Part shown: piece by piece, positions 11,203-36,961 of the stretch
Layout: every line of letters starts with the position of its first letter
How positions within the stretch are numbered: position 1 is the first letter of the stretch
Notes under the pieces: generated by a model
Told to the model about the DNA's origin: nothing
What the model saw: the letters and a program-made list of their open reading frames with translations, nothing else
Database searches by the model: none
DNA from: a virus
Taxonomy: Duplodnaviria; Caudoviricetes
DNA length: 53,873 bases
IMG/VR virus record: IMGVR_UViG_3300004805_000008
Coordinates: 1-53,873 of that record
Strand: one strand, 5' to 3'
Made by a program: the position numbers and the translations under genes

Positions 11203-11229
11203 TCATTTTTTCTGTGGCCTGTCCGATAC
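11203..11229 (+). promoter_or_regulatory. Putative sigma28-like promoter for ssb-uvsX
   Basis: TCAT-N15-TCCGATAC(T), divergent from the 11150-11176 site. Confidence 0.6.
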
Positions 11230-11243
11230 TCTTAATGTAGGAC

Positions 11244-11317: not shown

Positions 11318-12169
11318 ATGGCTACGAATTTCGCACGATTCAAGGAAAAGCTTGAGGCTAGCAAGGCCAAGAAAGCAACTACTGGGACTAACTGGTTTAA
11401 GGCAGAGACAGGCAAGCGGTATCAGCTCCGTTTCCTTCCCCTTAAGAACGAAGGTCTAGAGCTTCCTCTTACAATCTATCATCATCATGCAGTAACCTTC
11501 CCTGACGGTCATTTTGAGTCCGTTGCCTGTCCTAAGAAGCAGGATCTGGGTGAGTGTCCCTTCTGTGACCTCGCTTGGAAGACTTGGCGCAACTTCTCCA
11601 AGACTGAGAATGAGGCTTACCGTGATGCTTTCAAGAAGTTAGTAGTAAAGACGCATTACCTTATGGTCGCTTATGAGGCCGATCAGGTTGATGTGAATAA
11701 TATCACCGAAGCCGACCTGAAGATTGTTCGTGCTTCGTCTAAGACCAACATGGAACTCATTGAGTCCAAGCTTGAGAAGGGCGTTGACTTCTGTGATTTT
11801 ACAGACGGTCGAATTGTTGAGTACAGCAAGAGTAAGGCTACAACCAAGGGTGGATTCGATACCATCGTTCTCGATTTTGGTGACAAGTCCGTAGCTTTTG
11901 ACGGTAAGAATGGTAAGAAGTACTTCGATGAACTTGTTGAGAAGTCTCCTGACCTAACTGCTATTGTCACTCCCATGGATTCTGAGGCTCTCAAGGCTAA
12001 GTTCTCTGAGTTCTCTTCTCAGCCTGTTGCTGGTGATGACGATGAAGATGATCGTAATCTCCTCGCTCCAAAGCCCGAGATGCGAAAGGCTCCTGTAAAG
12101 GTTGTACAGCCTGTAGTTGAAGATGACGGCGAGATTGATCTTGACGAACTTCGCTCACAGCTTGATTAG
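11318..12169 (+). CDS. gp32: Single-stranded DNA-binding protein, T4 gp32-like
   Basis: LRFLP, HHH...ACP...ECPFC Zn site, acidic tail ending DDGEIDLDELRSQLD; AGGAG RBS; adjacent to uvsX. Confidence 0.85.
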   Translation: MATNFARFKEKLEASKAKKATTGTNWFKAETGKRYQLRFLPLKNEGLELPLTIYHHHAVTFPDGHFESVACPKKQDLGECPFCDLAWKTWRNFSKTENEAYRDAFKKLVVKTHYLMVAYEADQVDVNNITEADLKIVRASSKTNMELIESKLEKGVDFCDFTDGRIVEYSKSKATTKGGFDTIVLDFGDKSVAFDGKNGKKYFDELVEKSPDLTAIVTPMDSEALKAKFSEFSSQPVAGDDDEDDRNLLAPKPEMRKAPVKVVQPVVEDDGEIDLDELRSQLD

Positions 12170-12179
12170 TATTTAGCAT

Positions 12180-12220
12180 GTGGCCTTGATATGGGATAGT
12201 GAGTCCTGTATCAAGGCCAC
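12180..12220 (+). other. 17-bp intergenic hairpin between ssb and uvsX
   Basis: GTGGCCTTGATATGGGA / TCCTGTATCAAGGCCAC, 7-nt loop, no long U tract. Confidence 0.7.
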
Positions 12221-12237
12221 GCCTTTATGGAGATGAT

Positions 12238-13398
12238 ATGGCGTATGTAAAAAAGAGTGGTAAGTTAGATAAGGATCTGCCAGCCTCCGGTGCTGGTTCT
12301 TTTGATTATTCGGACCTAGGTGAGTTCCGTACTCAGCTAAAGAAGGAGTTCGGTAATAGTGCCGCTCTTGAGGACGATGACTTTGTAACTGATTTCCTTC
12401 CTACTAAGATCGAGCCTCTAGACTACCTGTTAGGTGGTGGTATCCCTCAGGGTAAGGTTACTGAGATCGTAGGTCTTGAGGGTGTTGGTAAGTCCTCCTT
12501 TGGTATCTATATGTTGGGCCAGATTCAGAAGCAGGGTGGCTTAGGTGTCTTGATTGATACTGAAAGTGGCGCTGGTGACCGTTTTAGGTTTGAAAACTTC
12601 GGTGTTGACACTAGTAAGTGTATCGTATCGGTTGAGGATCTTGCTGAGAAGGCATTTATGCAGATAGAGCGAGTGGCTAACTACATTTCAAAGAAGAATG
12701 TAAAGGCTCCTTCTCTATTGGTACTGGATTCTATTGCTGGTCTGACTACTAGGGCCGAGCAAGAAGCTGATATGGATCAACAGCAGTTTGCAGTAACTGC
12801 TAGAATGATTAAACGTGGCTTACAGCGTACTAAGATGGTGTGCCGGGAAACTAATCTCGCCGTACTTTGTATAAACCAAGCCAGAATTAAGATGGGTGGG
12901 ATGGTAAATGCGTACACTGGGCCTGAGTATACGAGTCCTGGCGGTGATACTCTTAAGTATCTTGCAATTACTCGCCTGTTTCTTACCCGAGGCTCTATGT
13001 TGGGGGAGCCTAAGAAGCCGGAAGGTCATGTGGTTAAAGCAAAAATCATTAAATGCAAAACCGCCGCATCTCTTGGCCGTACTCTCCCCCTGCGTTTTTA
13101 TTACGACAGTCGGGGCTATGATAGCGATCTATCTACTTATGACGTACTTAACGATGCTGGCGCTTTTGGTGGTGCCAAGTCTGCTTGGAAAACTATGATC
13201 ATGCCTGACGGTACTGAAAAGAAGTGGAATAGTGCTAACTCCTTCCTAGAAGTGATGAATGGCTCACCTGAAAACCGAGCTCACTTTTCTAGTATGATGA
13301 AGAAGTGTTTCATTGAGCAGCATAACTTTGTGACTAGATCGGAAGATAATGAGGAACCTTTCCCTCAGATTAGCGAACAGCTTCCTTCTGAAGATTAA
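12238..13398 (+). CDS. uvsX: RecA/UvsX recombinase
   Basis: LDYLLGGGIPQGKVTEIVG, Walker A GLEGVGKSS, Walker B LVLDSIA, INQ, SPGG. Start MAYVKK at 12238 with GGAG RBS. Confidence 0.93.
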   Translation: MAYVKKSGKLDKDLPASGAGSFDYSDLGEFRTQLKKEFGNSAALEDDDFVTDFLPTKIEPLDYLLGGGIPQGKVTEIVGLEGVGKSSFGIYMLGQIQKQGGLGVLIDTESGAGDRFRFENFGVDTSKCIVSVEDLAEKAFMQIERVANYISKKNVKAPSLLVLDSIAGLTTRAEQEADMDQQQFAVTARMIKRGLQRTKMVCRETNLAVLCINQARIKMGGMVNAYTGPEYTSPGGDTLKYLAITRLFLTRGSMLGEPKKPEGHVVKAKIIKCKTAASLGRTLPLRFYYDSRGYDSDLSTYDVLNDAGAFGGAKSAWKTMIMPDGTEKKWNSANSFLEVMNGSPENRAHFSSMMKKCFIEQHNFVTRSEDNEEPFPQISEQLPSED

Positions 13399-13425
13399 TT
13401 ATTTTTAGTACTGCGAGTTATAATT

Positions 13426-13456
13426 AAGCCTAACTAGAAAATAGTTAGGCTTTTTT
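13426..13456 (+). terminator. Intrinsic terminator after uvsX
   Basis: AAGCCTAACTA-GAAAA-TAGTTAGGCTT then T run. Confidence 0.85.
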
Positions 13457-13458
13457 AT

Positions 13459-13485
13459 TATGTTTATTTTTATTTTAGTCGATAC
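13459..13485 (+). promoter_or_regulatory. Putative sigma28-like promoter for the late sigma gene
   Basis: TATG-N15-GTCGATAC(T), between the terminator and ATG 13518. Confidence 0.6.
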
Positions 13486-13517
13486 TACTTAAGTAACTTC
13501 ATATAAAAGAGATAAGA

Positions 13518-14471
13518 ATGGCTGAAATCACTGATGATTCGTATAGTCCTATTGAAGAAGTTTCAGTAGGAAGAGAAAAATCTGGCTACAGAGTTATTAT
13601 GTATGATAAGCTTGAAGTAGAGCGACTTGAGAGAAATACTATACGTCTAATGATTGAAGATGATGCGAAGAGTAAGAAACCAGTTCCTCATTCGGATGCC
13701 TTTCTAATCAAAGCAATGGCCTTATTTCCAGACAGTTTCTTAGAGACTGAGGTTAAAAAGCGAAGAGGAAAGAAGTCTACATCGTATTTCATAGAGGATG
13801 TAGGGAAATATCTATGGTCTAAGTGGAAAGTATCCCAGGATTCAACGGACCGTAATAACTTTGTCTCCTATTGCTACACTTTAATCGATGGTGTTATCTT
13901 CAAGTACCAGAGACACAAGCACGGATTAGCGTACGAGGAGATTTTCCAAAGTGCTATACTGAAAGTAATACATGCAATGGATAAGTTCGATCCAGACAGA
14001 GTAGTAGGTAAGGATGATAAAGGTAAGGATGTATACGCCAGAGTGTTTACCTACTTTACCATGGTACTGAGCTTCGGTATCTGTACTATTACTATGGCTC
14101 ATGGCGCTGAGAAGATTACCAATGTCTCTTATGATGCTATCGCCCGTACTATAGATTCACATACAGATGGCTTTACTGATGCTGCTGTAGTATATCAGGA
14201 CTTTTTACTCACTTTAAACTCGATTTTACATGATGACACCGAGCAGTTTGACGATATAACTGATATGGACCGACTAGTTCTAGAAAAACTAGTCTTTTTA
14301 TTAGGTAATCCTTCCTCCCATTCAGGTCTTGTTCACAACTTAGAGTACACTTTAAAGACAGAAACTGGACTTAAGCAAAAAGAAATTGCTTCGTGTTTAG
14401 TTAAGCTTCGTTCTCACTTCGGCCCGTTGCATTTTGCTACCCAAAAAGGCACTCTTTCTGAAGAAGAGTGA
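13518..14471 (+). CDS. gp55: Late-transcription sigma factor, T4 gp55-like
   Basis: KKSTSYF, YEEIFQSAILKVIHAMDKFDPDR and VFTYFT match the sigma region 2 pattern of gp55-like proteins; possible C-terminal HTH (TETGLKQKEIA). Confidence 0.78.
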   Translation: MAEITDDSYSPIEEVSVGREKSGYRVIMYDKLEVERLERNTIRLMIEDDAKSKKPVPHSDAFLIKAMALFPDSFLETEVKKRRGKKSTSYFIEDVGKYLWSKWKVSQDSTDRNNFVSYCYTLIDGVIFKYQRHKHGLAYEEIFQSAILKVIHAMDKFDPDRVVGKDDKGKDVYARVFTYFTMVLSFGICTITMAHGAEKITNVSYDAIARTIDSHTDGFTDAAVVYQDFLLTLNSILHDDTEQFDDITDMDRLVLEKLVFLLGNPSSHSGLVHNLEYTLKTETGLKQKEIASCLVKLRSHFGPLHFATQKGTLSEEE

Positions 14472-14476
14472 ATTAA
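14470..14476 (+). promoter_or_regulatory. Putative late promoter GAATTAA (P1 of the structured leader)
   Basis: GAATTAA-TATGT-A, overlapping the sigma stop codon. Confidence 0.6.
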
Positions 14477-14509
14477 TATGTACAGGTGGAGGTTGGTAAC
14501 TACATTGAG

Positions 14510-14516
14510 TAATTAA
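14510..14516 (+). promoter_or_regulatory. Putative late promoter TAATTAA (P2, inside the rod)
   Basis: TAATTAA in the weakly paired centre of the rod. Confidence 0.5.
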
Positions 14517-14579
14517 TTTATGAGTTATATCTGTAGTGATAGTAACTTATATTATTTAACCACTCTAAGTGTAGTTATC

Positions 14580-14611
14580 GAAATCCACCTATCTTAAGGT
14601 GGATTTCTTTT
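14580..14611 (+). terminator. Terminator-like hairpin occluding the terS RBS
   Basis: GAAATCCACCT-ATCTTA-AGGTGGATTTC-TTTT, immediately followed by ATG 14612. Confidence 0.7.
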
Positions 14612-15154
14612 ATGAATGATATGTTACCCGAATCAAGGAAACCAATGACTCCTCAGAAAGATTCCGGTGCCGCTAGAGTAGACAAGATCAATCGTATTGT
14701 AGATACTGAGATTTCTAAGATGTTTGATGATCTTGATATTGTCTCCTCTGACTTAGATGCTCTCATGTCTATATTAAAGGATAGAATGATTGAATCCACC
14801 GAAGCGAGTTTCCCAATTGCTCTTGCTCGCCTCGGGGAATTGCGCATGGACGCTATTAAGAAGAGAATCGATATTCTTAAGACCTTAGTAACTGATAAGG
14901 GTTCTGAACTACAGGCCAAGAAGAAGTCAAATTCGGGTGACCTGGACTCTATCCTGTCCGGAGCAGGGCTTGGTATGATGCTTGGTGCTAAACTCGGACA
15001 GTCCAACTACAGTCAGCCACCCTCTATAGTAGTAAGCACTTCAGCTTTTGATACCATTAATACCGATGACGCTGAAGTAGTTTTCGATACGGAGCAAGTA
15101 AATACCGGTAACATTCTTAAAGACAGCGACATAGATACCATCCTAGGTGAATAG
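14612..15154 (+). CDS. Probable terminase small subunit
   Basis: 180-aa helical protein coupled to terL; positional inference. Confidence 0.6.
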   Translation: MNDMLPESRKPMTPQKDSGAARVDKINRIVDTEISKMFDDLDIVSSDLDALMSILKDRMIESTEASFPIALARLGELRMDAIKKRIDILKTLVTDKGSELQAKKKSNSGDLDSILSGAGLGMMLGAKLGQSNYSQPPSIVVSTSAFDTINTDDAEVVFDTEQVNTGNILKDSDIDTILGE

Positions 15155-17121
15155 TGGCTATAAATAACACAGGTAAACAGGCTCACGCTAAGAAATATAT
15201 CTCTCAGTACGAGGATAAGACTCATCTATCTTATGAGCCAGAGCGTCTTGTATACCGATGGAGACAAGAAGGCTTCTCGCAGGAAGAGATCAAAGTAAAG
15301 CTCACTGAGTATATTAATAGTGAGAGACAGAAGTGTATCGACGATATTTCTTACTTCGCTGAGAACTACGGGCTTATTTCCGGCCCTGGCGGTTCTGGTA
15401 TTATCCCATTCAAACTTGAGACGTATCAGAAGGACCTACTTAGATCATTCGCTTCAGATAAATACATCATCTGTAACAAGGCCAGACAGTTAGGTGTGTC
15501 GACTTCACTTATGTTCTATTCGCTCTGGTTAAGTATTTTCTCTTCTGGTAAGCGTTGTCTCGTAGTTGCACACAGAAAAGAATCTGCAGAAGAGTACATT
15601 ACCAAGCTTAAAACTGCCTATGAGTTCCTTCCCGCATGGTTGAAACCTGCGTGTACCTTATATAGTAAGAGCACTATTGAGTTCGAAACCAAATCTAGCG
15701 TTAAGGCTATTACCTCCAACCCACACGCCGCCCGTTCATTCAGTGCTACCGTGTTCCTAGTTGACGAAGCCGCATTCATTCCCAAGTGTGACGAAGTAAT
15801 CAAGGGTCTATTACCAACCATCTCGGCTTCTGACGGTAAGCTGATCGCTATTTCTACTCCTAATGGTAATAGTGATCAGAACTGGTTTTATACTACCTTT
15901 ACTATGGCAAAGTCTGGAGTAAACGGTTGGAAGTGGTTTGAGCTACCCTGGACTGTATCATCTATCTTTACTAAGAATCCTAATTTTAGACAAGATCAGA
16001 TCCGCATTGATAACGGAAATGTCGATAAGTTCAAGCAGGAGTACGAGGTCTGCTTCGATATTAACCTCAATTCCTTGTTCTCCCGTGAAGCCATCAATGC
16101 CTTTGAACCCTCCTCTGAGATTCTTAACAGGGCTTTTGGAGGTGTAACTTATGACGATACTCTATTTATATGGAAGACGGTAGAGTTTGGAGAGAAATAT
16201 ATCATTGGAGTTGACTGCGCCAGTAATAAGGCTTCGGCAAAGGACTCCACGTGCTTCCAAGTTATCAATGAGAACACCGTTGAACAGCATGCGGAGTATC
16301 TTGGCAAGCTACCAACTGAAGTATTTGTAGATATTCTCATCAAGACAGCCCGCCACTATAACAATGCCCTATTAATAATTGAGTCCAACACATATTCAGA
16401 TATCGTATTCTATCTCTTAGAACAACGTGGATATACGAATATTTGGTATGACGTTAATGCCTCATCGCCCGGCTTCCAGACGAATAGACGAACCAGACCG
16501 CTCCTTATTGAGAAGCTACTCCTCTTTTTTAATAACACTATTTATATGGAGAGACTACGCTCCGCCAGGCTCAAAGTACAGATGACTAATTTCTCGGCTG
16601 GCACCTTATATGTTGATGCCTCAAGAAAGTTCGAAGCTACCCGTGGAACTAATGACGATGCTGTATTAGCTCTAGCAATGGCCCTAGTTGATCTTACGCC
16701 AAAGGAGTTTGTCCATAAGCCCTTGATGGACTTCAGTCTCATCACTGAAACTAATAGAATGGATAATCGAGGCGAGTATTCACATGATTATTTAGAATAC
16801 CACTCCTCTAGAATGGGAATTTCGATCTCCGTCTTGGCTAATCGACTAAAGATATACCATGAGATCCGTTCTGGTGTATATGACGGATCCGGGCTTGAAA
16901 CTATGGAGATAGAGCACCCAGTAGAAGCCTTTGAGCGAAACCAATCCACCAAGGATTTCATCGGTGTACCCTTAATAACTCAGTATCCACAAGAAAACTT
17001 AGACTCTATAAGTCTGCTGCCAACAAATAGACAGTTTACTTTTGACGATCTCTTTGACCCACAGTTCCAGAACATGATTCAATCTCATCGTAACTTTCTA
17101 TATGGTAATACGGATTTCTAA
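15154..17121 (+). CDS. terL: Terminase large subunit
   Basis: NKARQLGVST (Walker A), FLVDEAAFI (Walker B), ISTPNG, IIGVDCA, IIESN, NDDAVLALA. Confidence 0.96.
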   Translation: MAINNTGKQAHAKKYISQYEDKTHLSYEPERLVYRWRQEGFSQEEIKVKLTEYINSERQKCIDDISYFAENYGLISGPGGSGIIPFKLETYQKDLLRSFASDKYIICNKARQLGVSTSLMFYSLWLSIFSSGKRCLVVAHRKESAEEYITKLKTAYEFLPAWLKPACTLYSKSTIEFETKSSVKAITSNPHAARSFSATVFLVDEAAFIPKCDEVIKGLLPTISASDGKLIAISTPNGNSDQNWFYTTFTMAKSGVNGWKWFELPWTVSSIFTKNPNFRQDQIRIDNGNVDKFKQEYEVCFDINLNSLFSREAINAFEPSSEILNRAFGGVTYDDTLFIWKTVEFGEKYIIGVDCASNKASAKDSTCFQVINENTVEQHAEYLGKLPTEVFVDILIKTARHYNNALLIIESNTYSDIVFYLLEQRGYTNIWYDVNASSPGFQTNRRTRPLLIEKLLLFFNNTIYMERLRSARLKVQMTNFSAGTLYVDASRKFEATRGTNDDAVLALAMALVDLTPKEFVHKPLMDFSLITETNRMDNRGEYSHDYLEYHSSRMGISISVLANRLKIYHEIRSGVYDGSGLETMEIEHPVEAFERNQSTKDFIGVPLITQYPQENLDSISLLPTNRQFTFDDLFDPQFQNMIQSHRNFLYGNTDF

Positions 17122-17153: not shown

Positions 17154-19094
17154 ATGGCTATCACAACCAATCGTAACTTATTCACGGCAATTTCAAAATT
17201 GTTTCAGAACAGTAAAAGTAACGAGTTTACTGCAAGAACCTCTATAGATTCCGTTTTAGCGGCTACCACTAGAGAGATTGCACCTACTCCAATTATTGAA
17301 CCTACTGTCATCTCGAACAAGGGAGTTGGACACGGATCTGTCTTTACTGAGGACGGTGTAGGTAAAAATTATCACAAATATCTTGAGCGTGAAGCCTTAC
17401 GACACTCTCGTTATGGTATGTATGATAGAATGGATGCCGACCTCGTAGCTTCGGCTCTTGACGTATATGCTAATGAGTCTACACAAAAGAATGATCGTGG
17501 TAAGGTTATCGGTGTCTTCTCTCCTTCTCGCTATATACAGGATGAACTCACTGATCTGCTTAACGATACTGGTATCAACAATTCTCGTAGCTGGTCTATC
17601 CTCAGAAGCATGTGTAAGTATGGTGACCACTTCTGTGCTTTGAAACTCGACTCTATTCGTGGTGTCGTAGAACTAATGGATCTAGACCAAGTTTCCGTAT
17701 ATCGCCTTGAGCGTCTTGGTAAGCTTGAGGGATATATTCAGGATCTGGACATTTTAAAGAGTCAGGTTCAGCAGGGTAACATCACCTCGGGTGGAGCTAA
17801 CCCTTATATCACTCTTAATACTCTCTCATTGCCCTACCTTACTGGCGACTCCTCCATCTCCCAGGATGACGAATCTCTTGTAATGTTCTTAAAGTATGAA
17901 CTGGCTCACTTTAGACTTCGTGGTAAGGGCGCTTTCATGCCCTACGGATCTTCGGTACTTGATTCGGCTGTGGATGTTTGGAAGAAACTAGACCTTCTAT
18001 TCGACTCACTCATCATTTATCGCTTAAATCGTGCTCCTACCCGCCTAGTTTTCTATGTCGATGTGGGCAATAACCAAGGCGCTGATGCAGAAAACATAGT
18101 TAAACGCCAGATTAATGCCATCAATAAGAAGGAATACTTCTCAAATGGCAAGCTGAATGAGCGTTATCAACTATTAGACATGAATGCCAACCTCTTTATT
18201 CCCATGGGTAAGGGTTCACAGTCTAAGGTAGACCTCTTAAACGGTGTTCAAAACATCGGAGATATTGAAGACGTGGCTTTCTTAAACAATCGCCTCTTCA
18301 GTGCTCTCAAAGTACCCAAGGCATTCTTAGGGTTTGAGGGTGACGTATCTTCAAAGGGCATGTTATCCCAGCAGAACGTTACTTTCGGTAAGGCTATTCA
18401 GAATATCCAAGAAGACTACCTAGAGACGATAAAGAATATCTGCTTGATCCATCTGGCTATTCGTGGCATCTCTAATGTTGATGAGATTAAGTCATTCGAT
18501 CTAGTCATGACTCGCCCTTCTTATATTGAAGAGAAGGCCAAGACTGAATTAGAAGCCGCTGCCGTAAATCTCGCAGGTCAATTCAGAGGCTTTGGTGTCA
18601 ATACTAGATGGATTGCCAAGAATATCCTTCATAGAACCGAAGGCGAAATTATAGAAATGTTCAAGCCAGATGATCTACTCCCAGCCCAGCCCAGTATGGA
18701 AGGCGGCATGGGTGGTGGAGGTGGCATGCCTATGGGTGATATGGGAACTGACTTCGGCACTCCTGATATGGGTGGAGGTGCTCCTCCTGATATGGGTGGA
18801 GGTGCTCCTCCGATGGGTCCCGCTGGTCCTGCTCCTATTGCTCTTCCCGGTGCTCCAGTCCAAGGTGGTGCTCCACTAGTTCAGTCTCGCCACACTGAGG
18901 GTGAGTTACTAGTAGAACACAACCATACCATCCTCTCTGCTACCTCAATAAAACTAGAGCTAAAAGAATACATTGCTTTAATTAAGGAAAATGGGATTGT
19001 AACTCCAACAGATTCAGCACAATCTTTTGGTATCCCATTAGTCGAAGTGAAAAATTTACAACTGACAGAACCAGAAGCTATCTTTTTAGATTAA
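17154..19094 (+). CDS. gp20: Portal protein, T4 gp20-like
   Basis: ASALDVYANEST, PYGSSVL, LIIYRLNRAPTRLVFYVDVGN, IGDIEDV, ALKVPKAFL; Gly/Pro-rich tail. Confidence 0.95.
   Translation: MAITTNRNLFTAISKLFQNSKSNEFTARTSIDSVLAATTREIAPTPIIEPTVISNKGVGHGSVFTEDGVGKNYHKYLEREALRHSRYGMYDRMDADLVASALDVYANESTQKNDRGKVIGVFSPSRYIQDELTDLLNDTGINNSRSWSILRSMCKYGDHFCALKLDSIRGVVELMDLDQVSVYRLERLGKLEGYIQDLDILKSQVQQGNITSGGANPYITLNTLSLPYLTGDSSISQDDESLVMFLKYELAHFRLRGKGAFMPYGSSVLDSAVDVWKKLDLLFDSLIIYRLNRAPTRLVFYVDVGNNQGADAENIVKRQINAINKKEYFSNGKLNERYQLLDMNANLFIPMGKGSQSKVDLLNGVQNIGDIEDVAFLNNRLFSALKVPKAFLGFEGDVSSKGMLSQQNVTFGKAIQNIQEDYLETIKNICLIHLAIRGISNVDEIKSFDLVMTRPSYIEEKAKTELEAAAVNLAGQFRGFGVNTRWIAKNILHRTEGEIIEMFKPDDLLPAQPSMEGGMGGGGGMPMGDMGTDFGTPDMGGGAPPDMGGGAPPMGPAGPAPIALPGAPVQGGAPLVQSRHTEGELLVEHNHTILSATSIKLELKEYIALIKENGIVTPTDSAQSFGIPLVEVKNLQLTEPEAIFLD
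18762..18809 (+). repeat. 24-bp tandem repeat x2 encoding PDMGGGAP
   Basis: CCTGATATGGGTGGAGGTGCTCCT twice. Confidence 0.85.
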
Positions 19095-23741: not shown

Positions 23742-23760
23742 TCGTAGTAAGCAAGTAATT

Positions 23761-23794
23761 AAAGAGGGCCTGAGAAATTGGGCCCTCTTTTTTT
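23761..23794 (+). terminator. Intrinsic terminator after MCP
   Basis: AAAGAGGGCC...GGCCCTCTTT-TTTT. Confidence 0.88.
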
Positions 23795-24313: not shown

Positions 24314-24340
24314 TACGCTTTCCATCTAAATGGCCGATAC
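24314..24340 (+). promoter_or_regulatory. Putative sigma28-like promoter for HNH and dNMP kinase
   Basis: (C)TACG-N15-GCCGATAC(T). Confidence 0.62.
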
Positions 24341-24364
24341 TACTATAAATAGGGTATCGGCCAT
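24330..24364 (+). promoter_or_regulatory. RBS-occluding hairpin before the HNH gene
   Basis: ATGGCCGATAC / GTATCGGCCAT, a perfect 11-bp inverted repeat ending 1 nt before ATG 24365. Confidence 0.8.
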
Positions 24365-36887: not shown

Positions 36888-36889
36888 CC

Positions 36890-36944
36890 GAATTAATACA
36901 TGTCGTGAAAACTCTCGTTAATTAAGTTGTAGCGAGAGTTTTCA
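36890..36944 (+). promoter_or_regulatory. GAATTAA followed by a 15-bp hairpin with TAATTAA at its apex
   Basis: GAATTAA 36890-96; TGAAAACTCTCGTTA (36906-20) / TAGCGAGAGTTTTCA (36930-44); TAATTAA 36919-25. Confidence 0.7.
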
Positions 36945-36961
36945 TTTAAAGGGTATATTTC

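Follow-up and report, generated by a model that had tools for sequence, protein, structure and literature searches.

A gap of 140 nt between a sigma-factor-like gene and the gene in the small-terminase position (terS) of an uncultivated, T4-like freshwater phage folds into a conserved RNA structure that may act as a regulatory leader. The phage is represented by IMG/VR virus record IMGVR_UViG_3300004805_000008 (estimated completeness, 25%), all 53,873 bases of which were analyzed and are referred to here as the window. The folded structure itself is a real observation. As to its role, we propose, with a probability of about 0.4, that the gap is a cis-acting, structured + strand RNA leader gating terS expression, whose control would probably extend to the gene for the large terminase subunit (TerL) through an overlapping start codon. 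An earlier note on this DNA had described a rod-shaped RNA switch, with a late promoter motif in its center, that times DNA packaging; that interpretation is partly supported.

Structure of the gap

All helices previously listed for the gap are found in place. AGGTGGA (14484-14490) is complementary to TCCACCT (14584-14590), and TTGGTAACTACATT (14493-14506) to AGTGTAGTTATCGA (14568-14581); a GAGT/ACTC helix is present, and an inner hairpin (14519-14552) is built by TATGAGTTAT with GTAACTTATA. The resulting rod consists of helices of 16-18 bp and 13 bp with internal loops between them, which are small and AU-rich. Next to the rod, an 11-bp hairpin (14580-14607), followed by TTTT and then by the ATG at 14612, contains in its 3' arm the AAGGTGG of the putative terS Shine-Dalgarno (SD) sequence.

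Folding was compared with 200 dinucleotide-preserving shuffles per region and it beats them, with 0 of 200 as stable in any region. The minimum free energy (MFE) of 14470-14614 is -46.3 kcal/mol on the + strand (z -5.59), that of the 107-nt rod alone (14484-14590) is -44.2 kcal/mol (z -8.10), and that of hairpin 14580-14607 is -15.8 kcal/mol (z -5.6). The - strand of 14470-14614 folds too (-39.8 kcal/mol, z -6.7), 6.5 kcal/mol worse than the + strand. The single 107-nt rod of the earlier note is stable alone, but for the gap as a whole the MFE structure has a rod of only 85 nt (14495-14579) standing beside the 11-bp hairpin; the longer form lies about 1 kcal/mol away (-49.6 kcal/mol with AGGUGGA:UCCACCU forced vs -50.7 kcal/mol, for 14470-14630).

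Hairpin 14580-14607 tops the list of terminator-like hairpins in the window. Its stem is that of a terminator, with 11 bp and 5 G-C pairs, and the window's UUUUAUGAAU passes a U-tract scan, but the tract is missing from the three close relatives described below, and only the hairpin of the previously proposed terminator is shared. The translation-initiation region of terS is the fourth most structured of 47 genes (-17.6 vs a mean of -7.9, standard deviation 5.5).

The element appears to be single-copy. There are no further copies in the window, none in the genome sequence G001 beyond its one copy (27 kb), and none in G002 (230 kb, 93% complete), which has only a 29-nt chance-level match; the 13-nt 5' motif has near-matches elsewhere in coding regions only. 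No Rfam family, 6S included, is matched at its gathering score, and at E<=10 there is only microRNA, snoRNA and leader noise. Two open reading frames (ORFs) within the gap, at ATG 14478 (12 codons) and ATG 14520 (25 codons, ending at a TAA that overlaps the SD), were considered as leader peptides and rejected for lack of conservation: where the first ATG would stand, L004 reads ATA, and L002 has GTG and a stop after 4 codons.

Conservation in close relatives

The gap is kept in three contigs with 76-78% sigma identity (L002, L003 and L004), which together with the window are called here the window clade. The gaps of L002 and L003 are identical, leaving three distinct sequences. A pattern scan of viral contigs for more clade members returned the same three contigs only; a metagenome scan with low-complexity peptide patterns gave 3 distant loci only, a pattern scan of genome contigs 0, and a protein scan 1 distant locus. 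L002 and L004 fold with the same architecture (-43.7 kcal/mol, z -5.07, and -41.1 kcal/mol, z -4.88). Over the three distinct sequences, 44 pairs have 94.7% of their cells paired and 3 pairs are changed on both sides; when the partners are slid by 1-3 columns, paired cells fall to 35-44%. Changes in the outer helix include G-C to C-G at columns 26/110 and C-G to U-A at columns 34/102. The alternative full-rod fold is equally kept (119/126 cells paired), and a 13-nt middle segment of the relatives, UGGGAAUCUGCCU, can pair with AGGUGGAGGUCCA or AGGUGGAUUCCCA. The SD-masking hairpin is longer in the relatives (12-13 bp, -19.6 kcal/mol). All of its cells are paired (100%), two pairs being G-U and one A-U pair having become G-C by a double change.

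The gap is also more conserved than its surroundings, with a DNA identity of 83.1% (118/142) vs 69.7-72.9% in the flanking genes. Four other runs, from metagenomes of freshwater, lake water, sediment and unspecified origin, yielded contigs in which the 140-nt gap has 1 variant site vs 10 in 14100-14471 and 10 in 14612-15000; because these data are contigs, and depth is low in three of the runs, rare variants are invisible in them. The single variant within the gap, 14502 A>G, occurs in each of the four runs; pairing with U14572 is kept, as G-U instead of A-U. These patterns point to purifying selection on the gap.

The structure acts at the level of RNA rather than DNA, as the earlier note had argued from G-U pairs. 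Within the clade, 15 G-U cells in 9 pairs face 3 A-C cells in 2 pairs, and in each of the three sequences folding favors the + strand over the - strand by 5-6.5 kcal/mol. Taken with the conservation, the G-U bias and strand stability indicate a selected structure acting as + strand RNA.

Competition for the anti-SD and a possible switch

One anti-SD (14584-14590) has two mutually exclusive partners, the upstream AGGUGGA and the SD of terS, and the two folds have, in the window, the comparable energies expected of an attenuator (-50.7 vs -49.6 kcal/mol). Constrained folds and pairing probabilities (P) bear out this competition, which had been noticed before. In nascent RNA begun at 14484 and not yet extended into the 3' arm of the SD hairpin, the full rod is predicted, with P for anti-SD:5' copy of at least 0.95 in the window, L002 and L004. 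In full-length RNA from 14484, the window retains 0.80 for anti-SD:5' copy vs 0.19 for anti-SD:SD, and L002 and L004 flip to the SD hairpin (P at least 0.95). RNAs that start at 14486 or at P2 (about 14521), or that read through from the sigma gene, form the SD hairpin with P of at least 0.97 in the window and at least 0.98 in L002/L004; in read-through and P2-start RNAs the SD lies in a helix, with P(SD unpaired) of 0.00-0.01. Folding of nascent and full-length RNA thus indicates that a start-dependent switch is thermodynamically real in the window. In the relatives, these predictions preserve the switch only as a co-transcriptional intermediate. The claim that transcripts from promoter-like motif P1 form the rod and free the SD accordingly stands for nascent RNA in 3 of 3 sequences and for the full-length window RNA, but not for full-length L002 and L004; that P2 transcripts, which have no 5' arm, cannot form the rod is upheld.

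The proposed switch would have four parts. The terS SD (14596-14603) would be locked by the anti-SD in a hairpin of 11-13 bp; an SD-like copy would stand upstream (14484-14490); the 85-nt rod would clamp this copy beside the anti-SD, so that it could capture the anti-SD and free the SD; and the promoter-like P2 (14511), with a 5' hairpin of its own, would sit inside the rod. An RNA started at or before 14484, from P1, would fold co-transcriptionally into the full 107-nt rod, from which the SD would emerge unmasked, making terS initiation possible; in the window phage the terminator-like hairpin would not form either. An RNA started from P2, lacking the 5' arm and the decoy, would form the SD-masking hairpin and allow no terS translation, and in the window its transcription may also end at the TTTT. 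The open state would be no more than transient in the close relatives, where the element would confine terS to a short burst per transcript.

Table 1. Features of the sigma-terS gap and of the genes around it (window coordinates).
Feature	Position	Strand	Remarks
P1, promoter-like motif GAATTAAT	14470..14483	+	overlaps sigma stop codon, then ATGTAC
Segment 1, 5' SD-like copy AGGTGGAGG	14484..14492	+	can pair with anti-SD 14584-14590; invariant in 4/4 clade sequences
Outer rod helix, 5' arm	14493..14510	+	fold and pair changes
P2, promoter-like motif (G)TAATTAATTTA	14511..14517	+	AU-rich center of rod
Inner hairpin, 13 bp, loop UGUAGU, bulged A	14519..14552	+	-10.1 kcal/mol; probable local form of family hairpin H1
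Outer rod helix, 3' arm	14562..14581	+	fold and pair changes
SD-masking, terminator-like hairpin	14580..14607	+	anti-SD TCCACCT 14584-14590, SD AAGGTGGA 14596-14603
TTTT tract between hairpin and ATG	14608..14611	+	window only; L002, L003 and L004 have CATT
Sigma-factor-like gene, 317 aa	13518..14471	+	directly upstream of element
Small-terminase-position gene (terS), 180 aa	14612..15154	+	stop overlaps TerL GTG start by one base
Large terminase subunit (TerL) gene	15154..17121	+	PHROG 2, E 4.6e-41; Pfam Terminase_6N, E 6e-4

The AATTAA motif

AATTAA is a genuine promoter-like motif of this phage. It occurs in 43 copies on the + strand, 27 of which touch intergenic DNA (3058 bases, 5.7% of the window), typically 15-45 nt 5' of structural-gene ATGs and often directly after terminator-like hairpins, with the extended consensus T-AATTAA-n-T-n-T-(A/T). 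The motif also stands 5' of the L005 portal gene (sigma identity of L005 to the window, 53%). Its function as a promoter and its start sites we infer from position and by analogy with the T4 late promoter, as described in PMC3014915; the 3' ends and all effects on translation or termination considered here are likewise predictions. Among the titles listed by a literature search on the motif, none concerned the motif or the family.

The gap carries two copies of the motif, AATTAAT at 14471 (P1) and 14511 (P2). P1 is invariant in the 4 clade sequences but for one R position. Scored with a position weight matrix (PWM), P2 reaches 14.1. Among 23 other intergenic sites (leave-one-out, 2.7-19.0) this ranks in the upper half; 16 coding-region copies give -3.9 to 12.6. 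A scan of 14472-14611 gave no sigma70-like site, and no AATTAA lies closer than 14471 and 14511 to the 5' arm of the SD hairpin (14580-14590). A promoter near enough to skip that arm, sought among the AATTAA copies, was not found.

Other sites show related arrangements. The gap at 36888-36961 (-22.4 kcal/mol, z -5.8) is of like layout: downstream of a GAATTAAT motif stands an 11-bp hairpin, GAAAACTCTCG/CGAGAGTTTTC, with a second TAATTAA in its loop. At 13422-13452 and 23757-23790, AATTAA overlaps the 5' arm of strong terminator-like hairpins, so that an RNA started by the motif would miss part of the stem. In L005 (4683), L012 (3183) and L013 (1471), an AATTAAT lies towards the 3' end of the sigma gene, with ~230 nt left to the stop codon; the window clade has no such copy. 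A second recurrent motif, CGATACT-N2-T-N2-A, is found at 13479-13497, 24326-24356, 11215-11240 and about 50490; one copy lies upstream of the sigma-like gene and another in a palindrome before gene 24365, and the motif may be another promoter class.

A wider family of junctions

Relatives at 51-55% sigma identity differ at the sigma-terS junction. L005 has no gap, the sigma stop being followed directly by ATG, and the element is absent; L012, L013, L014 and L023 have ORFs inserted at the junction, one of them an HNH_3/AP2 endonuclease, and L012 has two ORFs, one HNH_3. The terS starts of these relatives are unstructured (-6 to -9 kcal/mol). More distant contigs (group B, L027-L040, 45-48% sigma identity) have AATTAA at the sigma stop, then two hairpins, H1 and H2, then a GC-rich terminator with a U-tract, and terS or an inserted ORF begins about 25-45 nt past the terminator. 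Group B H1 has 11 bp, a UUGUAGU loop and a bulged G, and both loop and bulge are nearly invariant. Covariation is strong in both H1 and H2. In alignment A10, 7 of 11 H1 pairs are changed on both sides, a score that 0 of 500 shuffles reach; A10 was fitted to a model and is therefore biased towards structure. RNAalifold gives double changes in 10 of 16 pairs, and across the family H1 has 6 G-U cells vs 0 A-C cells.

A covariance model of this unit, R1, was built from four group B sequences only, without the window clade. Beyond its training set it finds L035, L027 and L040 (E 2e-8 to 6e-6), and it finds no H1 in L005, L012, L013, L014 and L023. In the whole window it has a single match, at 14511-14554 on the + strand (22.2 bits), which is P2 with the inner hairpin; the corresponding sites of L002 and L004 score E 0.018 and 0.036 (over 301 nt). 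The AAUUAA, the 11-bp hairpin, the UGUAGU-type loop and the one-base 3' bulge recur on the + strand in the expected place and order. From these R1 matches, P2 and the inner hairpin are probably a local form of a family-wide unit of motif and H1. Only the window clade, which has no H2, shows the outer helix, P1, the SD-like decoy and a terminal hairpin fused with the SD. P1 plus TGTACAG resembles the start of the L029 unit (R1 score weak, 4.2 bits, + strand), a likeness that would fit duplication.

At the family junction there may be a gene for a small structured RNA of a kind not described before, transcribed from AATTAA promoters of the phage itself. The RNA would comprise H1 (with its near-invariant UUGUAGU loop and bulged purine), a further hairpin and a terminator. 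Either a phage factor or RNA polymerase would recognize H1 (put- or nut-like), and in the window clade the RNA would be wrapped in an outer helix and combined with decoy SD, anti-SD and real SD into a start-site-dependent terminase switch. We consider this broader reading rather unlikely.

Several features of these junctions deserve record. Inserts lie at L012 3390-4469, L014 3417-4733, L013 1708-2271, L027 3390-4286, L035 3508-4212 and L040 3645-4244, making the junction an insertion hotspot for an HNH_3/AP2 endonuclease, an ORF with a weak intein-splicing match and Cys-rich ORFs. In L027-L040, a conserved TATAGAAATAAGT about 10-30 nt past the terminator, before terS or the inserted ORF, may be a ribosome site or another promoter. 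L027 (48% sigma identity) is a 21.8-kb contig in a metagenome-assembled genome labelled Bacillota, a binning that may be spurious and is unreliable as a host hint.

Evidence against the proposed leader switch

A number of results weigh against a start-site-dependent leader. Its predicted stable 'on' state is found only in the window: at equilibrium, the RNAs of L002 and L004 favor the SD-masking hairpin for every start tested (P at least 0.93). The switch depends critically on the exact, putative start site, since P1 RNA must begin at or before 14484 and a start two bases later abolishes it. P1, on which the open state would rely, has a PWM score of 7.0, at the weak end of the motif set and inside the range of coding copies (-3.9 to 12.6). 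P2, although the better promoter match, would puzzlingly yield an RNA unable to express terS. Sigma-gene read-through, which the earlier note had expected to form the rod as well, is predicted to leave the SD masked (P 0.99). The rod is known from three distinct sequences only, and the covariation expected of it is visible in the three double-changed pairs but marginal in a pair-conservation shuffle control, in which 26 of 500 shuffles reach the observed values. TTTTATG occurs only in the window, L002, L003 and L004 reading CCCATTATG (CAUUAUG after the stem); with the U-tract not conserved, termination cannot be a shared function in the window clade. The R1 match to the window is weak (E 0.24 over 99 kb, 7.2e-4 over 301 nt). 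Finally, no RNA runs are listed among the datasets with the locus.

Alternative explanations

The alternatives are not all mutually exclusive. In the foremost, P2, H1 and the terminator-like hairpin form a small RNA gene whose product, a discrete trans-acting RNA of ~90 nt (~130 nt from P1), masks the SD only as a side effect. The distant relatives speak for it, with their self-contained module of motif, H1, H2 and GC-rich, U-tracted terminator that remains whole where another ORF has entered the junction, be it ahead of the module (L027) or behind it (L035, L040), as do the near-invariant H1 loop UUGUAGU and bulged G, expected of a recognition hairpin, and the TTTT after the window's hairpin. 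The three closest relatives, however, have CCCAUUAUG after the hairpin, without a U-tract, and in the window clade the hairpin is tied to terS by lying right against its ATG and containing its SD; no Rfam family is matched, and the small AU-rich internal loops do not make an open bubble of the 6S type. We regard a small RNA gene as unlikely, if worth keeping in mind.

Two further explanations are each quite improbable. The rod could be a processing or stability element, either an RNase III-type site or a protective 5' stem-loop of the terS mRNA, separating the sigma and packaging messages. It is a long, imperfect, intergenic double-stranded rod of about 40 bp with internal loops, which we take to resemble the RNase III sites of phage T7; its structure is conserved and at RNA level, and other AATTAA sites (11245, 36891) also lie directly 5' of hairpins. 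Processing leaves the conserved 5' SD-like copy, the two-way anti-SD and the promoter-like motif within the rod unexplained, however, and a cut within the rod would keep the SD masked. The gap could instead be an insulator with a restart promoter, in which hairpins stop or attenuate transcripts of the sigma gene and a promoter within the hairpin restarts transcription, in the manner of promoter early stem-loops (PeSLs). AATTAA lies on the 5' arm or in the loop of hairpins at 13422, 23757 and 36920, the group B junction has a true terminator, and PeSLs are described as combining a promoter with a terminator stem-loop whose position relative to the promoter varies (PMC2839356). Against an insulator, the close relatives have no U-tract and the rod itself is not followed by one; P2 transcripts, moreover, retain the complete 14580-14607 hairpin and so do not escape it.

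A DNA-level signal, be it a pac or terminase recognition site, a cruciform or a hairpin promoter in single-stranded DNA, is very unlikely. The element adjoins terS, near which pac sites often lie, and both strands fold well, but the strand-specific G-U bias (15 vs 3 in the window clade, 6 vs 0 in family H1) disfavors it, and with it the packaging signal suggested in the earlier note, as do the - strand, weaker by 5-6.5 kcal/mol, and the absence of the element at the L005 junction and of an R1 H1 in L005, L012, L013, L014 and L023, despite the same terS and terL. Equally poor odds attach to a functionless relic of a motif-and-hairpin duplication or of an insertion at a hotspot junction; this would suit the variable junction (none in L005, two ORFs in L012, other ORFs in L013, L014, L023, L027, L035 and L040) and the direct repeats TATGTACAGGTGGA and TATCTTAAGGTGGA that flank 113 nt, yet the gap is more conserved and has fewer population variants than the adjacent genes, and its substitutions preserve both folds. 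The 6S-like promoter mimic of the earlier note, a version of the small-RNA explanation, is nearly negligible: although the element is rod-like, with promoter-like sequence near its center, it matches no 6S model, measures about 107 nt vs about 180 nt, lacks a large open central bubble and has a 3' end that is not conserved.

Comparison with known systems

The closest working analogues of the proposed leader are those of the T4 genes e (lysozyme), soc, 49 and I-TevI, in which a hairpin sequesters the SD and a late promoter lies within the structure (PMC3014915). The likeness comprises a T4-like phage, an SD in an RNA helix and a simple, AT-rich late-type promoter embedded in the structure, an embedding that makes the leader fold depend on the promoter used, in T4 as here. 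The logic would be inverted: the T4 internal promoter removes the inhibitory 5' arm and its RNA is translated, whereas here the activating (anti-anti-SD) arm would be removed. Unlike the T4 internal promoters, which lie past the 5' arm of the SD helix, 14471 and 14511 lie 60-110 nt upstream of 14580-14590, and the long clamp helix is an addition to the T4 layout. The leader would be a variant of the promoter-linked SD masking known from T4, and the proposed start-site-dependent mechanism is plausible.

PMC3014915 offers a second parallel in the 'split' ribosome-binding sites of T4 genes 38 and 25, in which RNA structure stands between an SD-like sequence and the AUG. With rod and hairpin formed, the 5' AGGUGGAGG would be single-stranded and drawn towards the start; a difference from the T4 sites is that the bridge would need to span two stacked helices, one of 85 nt and one of 28 nt, and that there is another SD at normal spacing. 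A split site is a possibility. PeSL cassettes of T4-type phages likewise combine promoter and stem-loop, in an intergenic spacer ending in SD and ATG, at a junction whose gene content differs between relatives (PMC2839356, PMC4122927). PeSLs carry sigma70-like early promoters and are dispersed repeats in about 50 copies per genome; the element here differs in both respects, with another motif, AATTAA, and a single copy across the 54, 27 and 230 kb searched.

Three-segment attenuators and expression platforms choose between 1:2 and 2:3 pairing, and the MS2 maturation gene and hok mRNA are cases of kinetic translational control. The gap is similar in that a middle segment, the anti-SD, has two exclusive partners and the order of synthesis favors the upstream one. 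It is unlike attenuators in having no conserved leader peptide, no ligand domain found with Rfam, a choice that would be set by the start site and no conserved U-tract; a protein site on H1 is possible as a sensor. Lambda PR'-tR' makes a short late transcript with Q antitermination, and HK022 has put RNA. Group B resembles PR'-tR' in its late-type promoter, one or two hairpins and intrinsic terminator just 5' of packaging genes; unlike lambda and HK022, no Q-like or N-like gene was identified, H1 and H2 match no known family, and the window clade has neither H2 nor a conserved U-tract.

Genomic setting

The gene order around the gap is that of a gp32-like single-stranded DNA-binding protein (11318-12169), a UvsX/RecA-like recombinase (12199-13398), the sigma-like gene, the terS-position gene, TerL and a T4-type portal (17154-19094). 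Isolated phages show no DNA-level match to the window, and TerL of the closest deposited phage is only 30.7% identical. A scan for tRNA and tmRNA found none.

The 317-aa sigma-like protein has a Pfam Sigma70_r2 match below the family cutoff (E 1.3e-3). A homologue search returned 44 proteins, among them seven at 75-83% identity (P0002-P0008) and two with precomputed PF04542. Its AlphaFold2 (AF2) model has a pLDDT of 72.8, and Foldseek with this model places almost only sigma chains at the top ranks (best E 9.4e-3, probability 0.95-1.00), with no match at E<=1e-3; a profile search of PDB sequences gave nothing. Its designation as a 'late' sigma is our inference. The 180-aa terS-position protein matches no Pfam family and has a sub-threshold lead to T5_Terminase_small in Atlas (score 0.82); its identity as terS is positional.

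Two observations concern neighboring genes. The GTG listed as the start of the UvsX-like gene lies inside a hairpin of 15 bp at 12170-12240 (-30.2 kcal/mol for the 65 nt folded), and the real start of this gene may be a downstream ATG. In L008 (4001-6943), the contig of L004, the TerL match takes 2943 nt for 655 aa and partly restarts at query residue 252, which suggests an insertion in TerL (intein, intron or endonuclease).

Significance

Terminase is needed in small amounts, late in infection, and the control of its level under simple late promoters is, to our knowledge, poorly documented for phages other than the models. Should the proposed reading be wrong, the locus remains a well-conserved structured leader or 3' untranslated region. 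If true, it would constitute a start-site-dependent RNA switch whose logic is inverted from that of the T4 lysozyme lock, and a conserved, unannotated RNA element (motif and H1, with or without H2 and terminator) for roughly 200-kb freshwater phages that encode their own sigma factor.

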